From assembly GCF_002104455.1 (NCBI RefSeq), contig NZ_NBOC01000002.1, forward strand, positions 10,369 through 42,368: a stretch of 32,000 nucleotides of DNA, in the 5' to 3' direction. The DNA comes from Colwellia chukchiensis (GTDB lineage: Bacteria > Pseudomonadota > Gammaproteobacteria > Enterobacterales > Alteromonadaceae). Positions within the stretch are counted from its first letter, which is position 1. Each line of letters starts with the position of its first letter. Below are positions 11,667 to 12,698 of the stretch, piece after piece. Made by a program: the position numbers and the translations under genes. Under the pieces are notes generated by a model. The model ran no database searches. It was not told the DNA's origin and saw only the letters and a list, made by a program, of their open reading frames with translations.

Positions 11667-12044
11667 ATGAAAACCATTGGCAAATTAGCACAATCATTAA
11701 ATTTAAATGTAGAAACCATTCGTTTTTATGAACGAGAAGGGCTGATTACACAACCTGAAAAACCAATATCTGGTTATAGACAATATGACGAAACAATAGC
11801 AGGACAACTTAGGTTTATCACAAAAGCCAAAGCGCTCGGCTTTACGTTAAGAGAAATAAAATCGCTAATGTCTATGGACAGCAACTGCGCTCAAGTTGAG
11901 CTATTAAGCCGACAAAAGTTAGTAATCATTCGAGACAAAATTAATGACCTTCAACGTTTAGAGAAAGTAATTGTGGATATGACAAATACCTGTATGCAAA
12001 ACGAAGATCCAACACATTGCCCCATAATTGATTCATTAAAATGA
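11667..12044 (+). CDS. merR: Hg(II)-responsive MerR regulator, 125 aa.
   Basis: The N-terminal HTH LNVETIRFYEREGLI compares with Tn501 MerR VNVETIRFYQRKGLL. The three metal Cys residues are in the canonical arrangement: DSNC...TNTC-x8-CPIIDSL, against Tn501 C-x8-CPLIASL. Confidence 0.85.
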   Translation: MKTIGKLAQSLNLNVETIRFYEREGLITQPEKPISGYRQYDETIAGQLRFITKAKALGFTLREIKSLMSMDSNCAQVELLSRQKLVIIRDKINDLQRLEKVIVDMTNTCMQNEDPTHCPIIDSLK

Positions 12045-12076
12045 TTGACTCCGTACTTATATACGGAGTTTAAAGT
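12045..12076 (+). promoter_or_regulatory. mer operator/promoter (merOP) starting one base after the merR stop codon.
   Basis: TTGACTCCGTACTTATATACGGAGTTTAAAGT. My recollection of Tn21/Tn501 merOP is TTGACTCCGTACATGAGTACGGAAGTAAGGT. Arms ACTCCGTA and TACGGAGT (12048-12055 and 12062-12069) are perfect. The spacer between TTGACT and TTAAAG/TAAAGT is 19-20 nt. Confidence 0.75.
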
Positions 12077-12105
12077 GCTGGTAATATCAACCAATAGACT
12101 TTCAA

Positions 12106-12495
12106 ATGATAAATAAAATTTTAGATAAAGTTGGCTCAGGCGGGGTTTGGCTTGCAGCACTTAGTTGTACAGGGTGTTTCCCTGCACTCGGTTCATTAGC
12201 ATCAGCGTTGGGGTTAGGTTTTCTTTCTCACTTTGAGGGGATTGCTGTAAATACCTTGTTACCTATATTTGCAACTCTGGCGCTACTAGTAAACTTATAC
12301 AACTGGCACAAAAATAAAAACCATACCAGAGCTGTCTTCAGCATTCTAGGGCCTGTAGCAGTGCTATTAACGCTTTATCCTCTTTGGCAATATGATTGGA
12401 GCACATACCTATTTTACTTTGGTATTTGCTTAATGATCGTTATGTCGGTTTTGGATATCGTAAAACCAGTAAGGGAGCAAACATGCAACGTATAG
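12106..12495 (+). CDS. merC: Mercuric ion transporter MerC, 129 aa.
   Basis: LAALSCTGCFPALGSLASALGLGFLSHFEG aligns with Tn21 MerC VVSAMGCAACFPALASFGAAIGLGFLSQYEG. Four predicted TM helices. Confidence 0.85.
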   Translation: MINKILDKVGSGGVWLAALSCTGCFPALGSLASALGLGFLSHFEGIAVNTLLPIFATLALLVNLYNWHKNKNHTRAVFSILGPVAVLLTLYPLWQYDWSTYLFYFGICLMIVMSVLDIVKPVREQTCNV

Positions 12496-12698
12496 AGCTA
12501 AAGTCGACTATTACATGTCCAGAATGTGGGTATAGTCAAATTGAAGAAATGCCGACAAACGCTTGTCAGTGGTATTATGAATGTGAATCGTGCAAAGTTT
12601 TGTTAAAGCCTTTAAAGGGTGACTGCTGTGTTTATTGTTCGTTCGGAACAGTTAAGTGTCCTCCTATTCAGGAAGGGCAAAATTGCTGCTCTGGCTAA
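12483..12698 (+). CDS. GDCCVxC-motif Cys-rich small protein: 71 aa, 11 Cys.
   Basis: Starts at MQRIELKSTITCPECGY, with SD aagggag 5 nt upstream, and overlaps the merC end by 13 nt. The ORF-track start at 12396 is an out-of-context extension. The motif KGDCCVYC matches the family I recall being named 'GDCCVxC domain-containing (seleno)protein'. Confidence 0.75.
   Translation: MQRIELKSTITCPECGYSQIEEMPTNACQWYYECESCKVLLKPLKGDCCVYCSFGTVKCPPIQEGQNCCSG

Follow-up and report, generated by a model that had tools for sequence, protein, structure and literature searches.

A conserved merR-merC-GDCCVxC unit in Colwellia chukchiensis as a candidate mercury import-and-capture cassette

The 32,000-nt stretch of Colwellia chukchiensis DNA analysed here (NZ_NBOC01000002.1; the whole stretch is called the window, and the genome is labelled G000) carries a small mer locus, in which a MerR-type regulator gene, an operator, a gene for a MerC importer and a gene for a 71-aa cysteine-rich protein of the GDCCVxC family follow one another on the same strand. 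Comparison among genomes demonstrates that these four elements are conserved as one unit, that gene overlap and fusions bind the GDCCVxC protein to mer-type importers both physically and genetically, and that the cassette is kept without the mercuric reductase MerA in most hosts. We propose, with modest confidence, that the locus is a self-contained Hg(II)-inducible import-and-capture cassette in which the GDCCVxC protein would serve as a dedicated cytoplasmic Hg(II) acceptor. Each gene is recognizable by itself and has an NCBI name; neither the function of the cassette as a unit nor that of the GDCCVxC protein has been described before. The elements of the cassette are the following.

11667-12044, plus strand: merR, Hg(II)-sensor type, 125 aa; best NCBIfam match MerR TIGR02051.
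12045-12076, plus strand: promoter/operator; the -35, dyad and -10 elements were read from the sequence.
12106-12495, plus strand: merC, 129 aa; NF033784, PF03203.
12472-12476, plus strand: GGGAG ribosome-binding site of the GDCCVxC gene; it lies inside merC, at the 3' end, with 6 nt between it and the start codon ATG at 12483.
12483-12698, plus strand: GDCCVxC-domain protein, 71 aa, 11 Cys; NF041374.

The initial annotation of this DNA had credited the regulator with the canonical cysteines of a mercury-sensing MerR, and alignment bears this out. Cys73, Cys108 and Cys117 coincide with the three cysteine columns of Tn501 MerR (5CRL) and Bacillus MerR (4UA1), the nearest solved structures, where these columns hold the Hg ligands; the three residues are candidate metal ligands. 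The regulator scores 139.6 bits on TIGR02051 (138.8 in the genome scan) and does not reach the equivalog cut-off of 150.85; MerR is still its top-scoring family, well above ZntR, CadR and CueR.

The regulator gene ends with a TGA at 12042-12044, and the -35 hexamer TTGACT (12045-12050) starts one base after this stop. A full perfect dyad, ACTCCGTA-N6-TACGGAGT, occupies 12048-12069. The proteobacterial MerR consensus site is TCCGTAC-N4-GTACGGA (PMC1526738), and 12050-12067 fits this 7-4-7 dyad at 13 of 14 positions; none of 100 shuffles of the window sequence did so. The best -10 hexamer, TAAAGT (12071-12076; TATACT in relatives), gives a 20-bp spacer, and the poorer TTAAAG gives 19 bp, in agreement with the Tn21-like operator and 19-20-nt spacer that had been annotated. 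This dyad with its -35 is the sole such site in the 4.0-Mb G000 assembly. The operator is kept in 11 loci of the genus, mostly 0-5 nt past the merR stop, and none of the relatives has a mer operator upstream of merR. At one locus (L018), a C-to-T change on one arm is compensated by a G-to-A change on the other (CTCTGTAC...GTACAGAG). A proteobacterial-type palindrome inside a 20-bp spacer is also known from the "mixed-type" mer promoters of Pseudoalteromonas haloplanktis and Providencia rettgeri, and merR is part of the operon in Providencia rettgeri (PMC1526738). As RNA, the operator (12048-12076) folds into an 8-bp hairpin of -10.2 kcal/mol followed by UUUAAAG, which could weakly attenuate read-through from merR, a gene without a terminator of its own.

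The assignments of the two downstream genes were upheld. MerC scores 174.9 bits on NF033784 (cut-off 140) and 55.9 on PF03203 (27.6), and carries a CxxC motif (Cys21 and Cys24, in SCTGCFP) in its first hydrophobic segment together with one C-terminal cysteine, Cys127. Such a single cysteine three residues from the C-terminus is characteristic of the MerC proteins paired with a GDCCVxC protein, whereas the MerC proteins of merA operons have C-x4-C. The small open reading frame (ORF), which overlaps merC by 13 nt, scores 103.3 bits on NF041374 (cut-off 40) and is not matched by any Pfam family. Its product contains cysteines at positions 12, 15, 28, 34, 37, 48, 49, 52, 59, 68 and 69, the motif GDCCVYC spanning residues 46-52, and has no hydrophobic segment, so it is predicted to be cytoplasmic.

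All three genes of the cassette are under strong purifying selection. The ratio of nonsynonymous to synonymous substitution (dN/dS) for merC is 0.03-0.06 against relatives with unsaturated synonymous sites, and 0.30 against the near-identical copy in the nearest relative, G008. For the GDCCVxC gene, nonsynonymous differences (pN 0.06-0.12) stand against saturated synonymous ones (pS 0.75-0.88), and dN/dS is 0.059 against the nearest relative. In an alignment of 26 diverse homologues (A1), all 11 cysteines are invariant or at least 90% conserved, and 27 columns, 17 of them non-cysteine, are invariant across Alpha-, Gamma- and other Proteobacteria. When solved structures were searched by profile, the N-terminal half showed a weak zinc-ribbon likeness (1QYP, E = 0.004), the other matches being rubredoxin-knuckle noise. 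We rejected a metallothionein-like sequestering protein, for which slack constraint outside the cysteines was the criterion, because of the 17 invariant non-cysteine columns, the zinc-ribbon-like signature and the occurrence, in some homologues, of selenocysteine at one specific position.

We compared 22 genomes of the genus. A GDCCVxC gene above cut-off occurs in 12 of them and lies directly after merC in 10, at 11 loci; the overlap between merC and the GDCCVxC gene is kept at every one of these loci, and a full-length merR stands upstream of merC at 10 of the 11. MerA, counted only above its family cut-off (TIGR02053, 454 bits), is present in 6 of the 22 genomes; MerA-like proteins of about 743 aa, found both in carriers and in non-carriers of the cassette, fall short of it at about 370 bits and were excluded from these counts. 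Seven of the 10 cassette carriers lack MerA, two of them being single-contig assemblies. In the other direction, three genomes (G001, G004 and G007) encode MerA in open frames of 484, 484 and 545 aa, with scores much like those of G000, and have no GDCCVxC gene. In G008, one metal-resistance island holds both the cassette and a merA operon, about 28 kb from each other. The neighbours of the cassette differ in the other congeners and often include genes for CDF and RND exporters.

Beyond the genus, the family is large. Relatives of the 71-aa protein form at least 1,238 clusters at 90% identity, many of them named just "GDCCVxC domain-containing (seleno)protein", and 2,994 representatives at the 50% identity level (E <= 0.001); identity within the family is 60-90% across several phyla. 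The family is found on 351 of 72,556 plasmids, including clinical plasmids of Pseudomonas, Klebsiella, Enterobacter and Citrobacter. In a one-genome-per-species collection, at least 578 stretches (stretches, not distinct genomes) encode a relative. The best 80 of these, on which the neighbourhood survey was based, come from several classes of Proteobacteria, Bacteroidota and one metagenome-assembled genome (MAG) of Verrucomicrobia. At these 80 loci, the immediate same-strand upstream gene usually encodes a mer-type transporter. It is an ORF of about 200 aa resembling both MerT and MerP (MerTP) in Bacteroidota; elsewhere, this place is taken by MerT plus MerP, by MerC, or by a short membrane ORF that resembles MerT only weakly. 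ORFs related to MerT, MerP or MerTP lie within 3.5 kb of the gene in 37 of the 80 loci, and two clusters of shorter, weakly MerT-like membrane ORFs add 11 and 10 further loci, although these counts may overlap. The cassette is the MerC-type form of a widespread family in which GDCCVxC follows MerC, MerT/MerP or MerTP. Whole-genome searches of the 79 genomes behind these loci, many of them incomplete MAGs in which the top-ranked MerA candidates alone were scored, found MerA above cut-off in 6 and not in the other 73. The cross-tabulation of MerA with GDCCVxC covers 101 genomes in total.

The link between the cysteine-rich protein and the importer, which the initial annotation had suggested, is strengthened by the conserved adjacency and overlapping frames, and also by fusions and selenocysteine variants. 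At nine loci, a MerC-like four-helix domain and a C-terminal GDCCVxC domain form a single ORF, and the fusion at L031 was confirmed by NCBIfam. Other fusion partners of GDCCVxC are PAS-GGDEF (793 aa), HMA (166 aa, P0170) and a MerT-like segment with two helices (143 aa), and two divergent GDCC-like domains were also observed in tandem (144 aa); proteins P0180, P0170, P0124 and P0121 represent the fusions and the tandem. A metagenome scan for TGA at the second cysteine of GDCC found 11 stretches, 6 of which (at least 5 distinct sequences) read through as near full-length members with GDC-U-V[FY]C. This selenocysteine position corresponds to Cys49 of the window protein. The selenocysteine-type loci are L123, L124, L126, L127, L128 and L131, some with mer-like neighbours; C-terminal selenocysteine was found in none of the 80 loci.

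At three Bacteroidota loci, a flavoprotein resembling glutathione reductase and lipoamide dehydrogenase is encoded between MerTP and GDCCVxC (L055:6616-7971, L070:6631-7977 and L086:5444-6790). These proteins of 448-451 aa score about 300 bits on the MerA model (cut-off 454). In a Ramlibacter MAG, a gene of this kind is found after GDCCVxC (L084:5195-6736), and all four flavoproteins lack the C-terminal cysteine pair of MerA. Such a flavoprotein is a candidate non-canonical reductase partner.

No homologue of MerA, MerT or MerP was found within the window, as annotated. The description of the locus as reductase-less holds for the cassette type, and fails for G000 itself. This assembly (44 contigs, marker-gene completeness 100%) contains two merA genes above cut-off, on contigs C1 and C26, in full co-directional merR-merT-merP-merC-merA-merD operons.

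C1:21122-22573: merA, product of about 480 aa.
C26:1087-2526: merA, product of about 480 aa.

Both MerA proteins lack the N-terminal HMA domain (NmerA) and carry a vicinal cysteine pair near the N-terminus. The genome search for further mer genes that had been proposed thus recovered merA, merT and merP on C1 and C26; merB was not found in G000, where the MerB model, which matched no control genome either, was used. The co-directional merR, which had been taken as atypical, is no peculiarity of the cassette, since both complete operons are built likewise.

It had also been noted that a merA elsewhere under the same operator would make the locus an ordinary split operon. A merA is indeed present elsewhere, but the operators of C1 and C26 share with that of the window just TTGACTCCGTAC (the -35 and left half-site), and their right half-site is GTACATG or GTACATA where the window has ATACGGA. 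Their MerR proteins, which score 190.5 and 174.5 bits on TIGR02051, are 47-51% identical to the window MerR, and their MerC proteins are 44% identical to the window MerC. We rejected the split-operon reading: the merA operons are complete and have their own merR, merT, merP and merC. Because they have regulators of their own and operators that differ in the right half-site, the window cassette is, on this comparison, a separate paralogous module. It has in common with them the co-directional merR, a 20-bp spacer (by hand count) and the -35 with left half-site, and differs in lacking merA and in its perfect dyad, the right half-site of the complete operons being degenerate.

Two further features were seen in or beside the complete operon on C1. 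A second GDCCVxC gene of G000 (73 aa, 60% identical) lies directly beside it at C1:25973-27875 (loci L011 and L026), in a module consisting of a divergent MerR-like regulator followed by GDCCVxC, a MerT-like protein of 157 aa, an HMA protein of the periplasmic type with a hydrophobic N-terminus and an unassigned 168-aa protein; this type of module recurs in G008 and in a Colwellia MAG (L103). In addition, a gene for a 427-aa Glu/Leu/Phe/Val-type dehydrogenase is located between merR and merT of this operon (C1:23795-25078; L009:1939-3219, minus strand). A copy of a mer-like promoter (TTGACCCCGTAC...) lies ahead of the gene, which may be a passenger that supplies NAD(P)H under the control of Hg.

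The window cassette is set in a czc/CDF/cadR island, and the gene next to merR is also of the MerR family.

11235-11624, plus strand: cadR-like MerR-family regulator gene; TIGR02047 CadR-PbrR, 154.8 bits (cut-off 151.45).

Between this gene and merR, which have the same direction, lies a gap of 42 nt in which no terminator was detected; in G000 and G008, the two may share a transcript. The cadR-like gene adjoins merR in these two genomes only, the other congeners having unrelated sequence upstream of merR; it is context, outside the conserved cassette.

What, then, would an importer without an adjoining reductase do? Since the cassette usually occurs in bacteria without a mercury reductase, it probably captures mercury rather than reducing it. 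Another account would make it the auxiliary uptake arm of a true mer system, with the GDCCVxC protein delivering Hg(II) to a MerA encoded elsewhere in place of the missing NmerA, so that it would be useful only together with a reductase. We consider this rather unlikely, although the short MerA proteins of G000 do lack that domain, merA and the cassette do share one metal island in G008, the operators have TTGACTCCGTAC in common, and the Tn5563a transposon, which carries mer genes without merA, raised Hg tolerance in two hosts only, for which a chromosomal merA was proposed (PMC4447125). MerA is missing from 7 of 10 congeners with the cassette and from 73 of the 79 other GDCCVxC genomes, and the merA operons already own merT, merP, merC and merR. 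Moreover, G001, G004 and G007 have comparably scoring MerA and no GDCCVxC gene, so that such a MerA needs no GDCCVxC protein and the idea of an NmerA substitute required by the short MerA is weakened. The cassette might also handle another thiophilic element, such as Cd, Zn, Pb, Au, Ag, Cu(I) or As(III). Its czc/CDF/cadR setting with an adjoining CadR gene, the sub-cut-off MerR score and the ArsR-type or CadR-like-looking regulators, P-type ATPases and RND pumps near GDCCVxC elsewhere (clusters judged by eye) point in that direction. We regard it as improbable: 13 of 14 operator positions agree with the Hg-MerR consensus, the three cysteines fall in the cysteine columns of MerR, the closest solved structures are those of MerR and not of CadR or CueR, MerC exceeds its equivalog cut-off, and GDCCVxC is usually accompanied by MerT/MerP-type proteins.

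Some members have selenocysteine, a residue typical of redox-active sites, in place of Cys49, the protein ends in a vicinal cysteine pair as MerA does, and a flavoprotein disulfide reductase stands between MerTP and GDCCVxC at three Bacteroidota loci, with a similar gene in the Ramlibacter MAG. These features suggest that GDCCVxC could be the redox-active part of a MerA-independent route, passing Hg(II) to a glutathione-reductase-like flavoprotein or into inert Hg-sulfide or Hg-selenide. We attach little probability to this for the cassette, as such a flavoprotein adjoins it neither in the window nor elsewhere in the genus and is absent from most of the 80 loci, and the 71-aa protein has no recognizable cofactor site. 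Finally, that the locus is the functionless, decaying remnant of a full mer operon would agree with the names "defective" and "incomplete" given to Tn5563-type loci (PMC4785139) and with their frequent sensitization of hosts to Hg (PMC4447125). Selection and distribution make this very unlikely: dN/dS is about 0.06 with saturated synonymous sites, the family is conserved at 60-90% identity across several phyla (2,994 representatives at 50% identity), the operator is maintained and shows a compensatory change, and independent fusions exist.

Several observations count against import and capture as the function of the cassette. G000 itself carries merA, as does G008, and the tally outside the genus draws on many incomplete MAGs. 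The sub-cut-off score of the window MerR leaves the metal specificity less than certain. AlphaFold2 models of the 71-aa protein (26 homologues) and of a 202-aa MerC::GDCCVxC fusion (9 homologues) reached a mean predicted local distance difference test score (pLDDT) of only 50.2 and 52.3, respectively, and no binding site is discernible in either. A full-text literature search on the name GDCCVxC found no paper, and thus no published experiment; a large survey of mer genes mentions no cysteine-rich partner (PMC8261052). The remaining objection comes from Tn5563a, which is described as merR-merT-merP without merA. Among 15 hosts that received it, the minimum inhibitory concentration (MIC) of Hg fell at least 2-fold in 6 and rose in 2, and the authors suggested a possible chromosomal merA for the two rises (PMC4447125). 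Because of this outcome, the cassette alone appears not to be a high-level resistance determinant.

Tn5563 and Tn5563a are reductase-less mer modules like the window cassette, and apparently represent the MerT/MerP form of the same design; they differ in their MerT/MerP importer, their divergent merR and their location in a Tn3-family transposon on Pseudomonas and IncP-6 KPC plasmids. The order in Tn5563 is tnpR-orf2-pilT-tnpA-merP-merT-merR, with a mer locus called "defective" or "incomplete" (PMC4785139), and the published maps give no gene between merP and tnpA (PMC4785139, PMC4447125). RefSeq, by contrast, annotates a GDCCVxC gene between merP and tnpA in a Tn5563-type element (L121, 3718-4213) on NZ_CP040685.1, a clinical Pseudomonas aeruginosa IncP-6/IncU plasmid, and we infer that the original Tn5563a also carried this gene.

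With the mer operons of Tn21 and Tn501, it shares the three-cysteine MerR-type sensor, the 13/14 dyad between -35 and -10, and MerC. Unlike them, it has no merA, merT, merP or merD, the GDCCVxC gene taking the place of the reductase; its merR is co-directional rather than divergent, with the operator right after the merR stop, and its spacer, taken with the best -10 hexamer, is 20 bp rather than 19. The HMA domains of NmerA and MerP share the role proposed for GDCCVxC, as small soluble cysteine-pair domains taking Hg(II) by ligand exchange at the transporter, and the HMA::GDCCVxC fusion P0170 links the two. GDCCVxC is unrelated to them in sequence, and differs in having no HMA match, a zinc-ribbon-like N-terminal half, 11 cysteines instead of 2 and no fusion to the reductase. 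Engineered bioaccumulation strains that combine MerT/MerP with metallothionein or polyphosphate (PMC6215804) follow the same logic of import and intracellular storage; these are artificial, whereas GDCCVxC is natural and highly conserved and, unlike metallothionein, has many invariant non-cysteine residues.

For the import-and-capture cassette, we hypothesize the following mechanism. By homology, a MerR-type dimer would sit on the dyad between the over-spaced -35 and -10, and binding of Hg(II) through Cys73', Cys108 and Cys117 would activate transcription of the two-gene operon. MerC, as expected from its family, would use the thiols of its CxxC helix to bring Hg(II) through the inner membrane by exchange. 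The co-translated GDCCVxC protein would then accept Hg(II) at the cytoplasmic end of MerC (Cys127); the coupling of the two proteins comes from genomics, and the chemistry is conjectural. The acceptor ligands may be the Cys48-Cys49 pair and probably the C-terminal Cys68-Cys69 pair, on a fold that could be a CPxC...CxxC zinc ribbon. The bound metal would be shielded from essential thiols, and the protein would act as a stoichiometric buffer at environmental Hg in hosts without MerA. Where a reductase exists, as in G000, the metal could possibly be passed on to MerA, which the data do not require. A stoichiometric sink that is adequate at environmental Hg and overwhelmed in micromolar MIC tests would reconcile this mechanism with the Tn5563a result.

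In the textbook view of mercury resistance, Mer importers are sensible only where the MerA reductase accompanies them, and a locus lacking merA is dismissed as broken. Here, the importer has a different and constant partner, the GDCCVxC protein, which is fused to it in some lineages and bears selenocysteine in others, and about nine in ten of the genomes that carry GDCCVxC lack MerA. A broader conjecture, which we think distinctly unlikely, is that GDCCVxC represents a second, MerA-independent mercury route, more widespread than recognized, wherein a Cys/Sec relay docks on MerC/MerT-type importers and hands Hg(II) to an inert chelate or to a non-MerA flavoprotein, the latter forming a two-component mercuric reductase. 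If that were true, Tn5563 and other "defective" mer loci of clinical plasmids would have to be regarded as complete, functional systems. If GDCCVxC is a cytoplasmic mercury acceptor, as we propose for the Colwellia cassette, the persistence of reductase-less mer modules would be explained. The protein would then offer a natural template for mercury bioaccumulation or biosensing, and its role would bear on how marine bacteria handle picomolar-to-nanomolar mercury.

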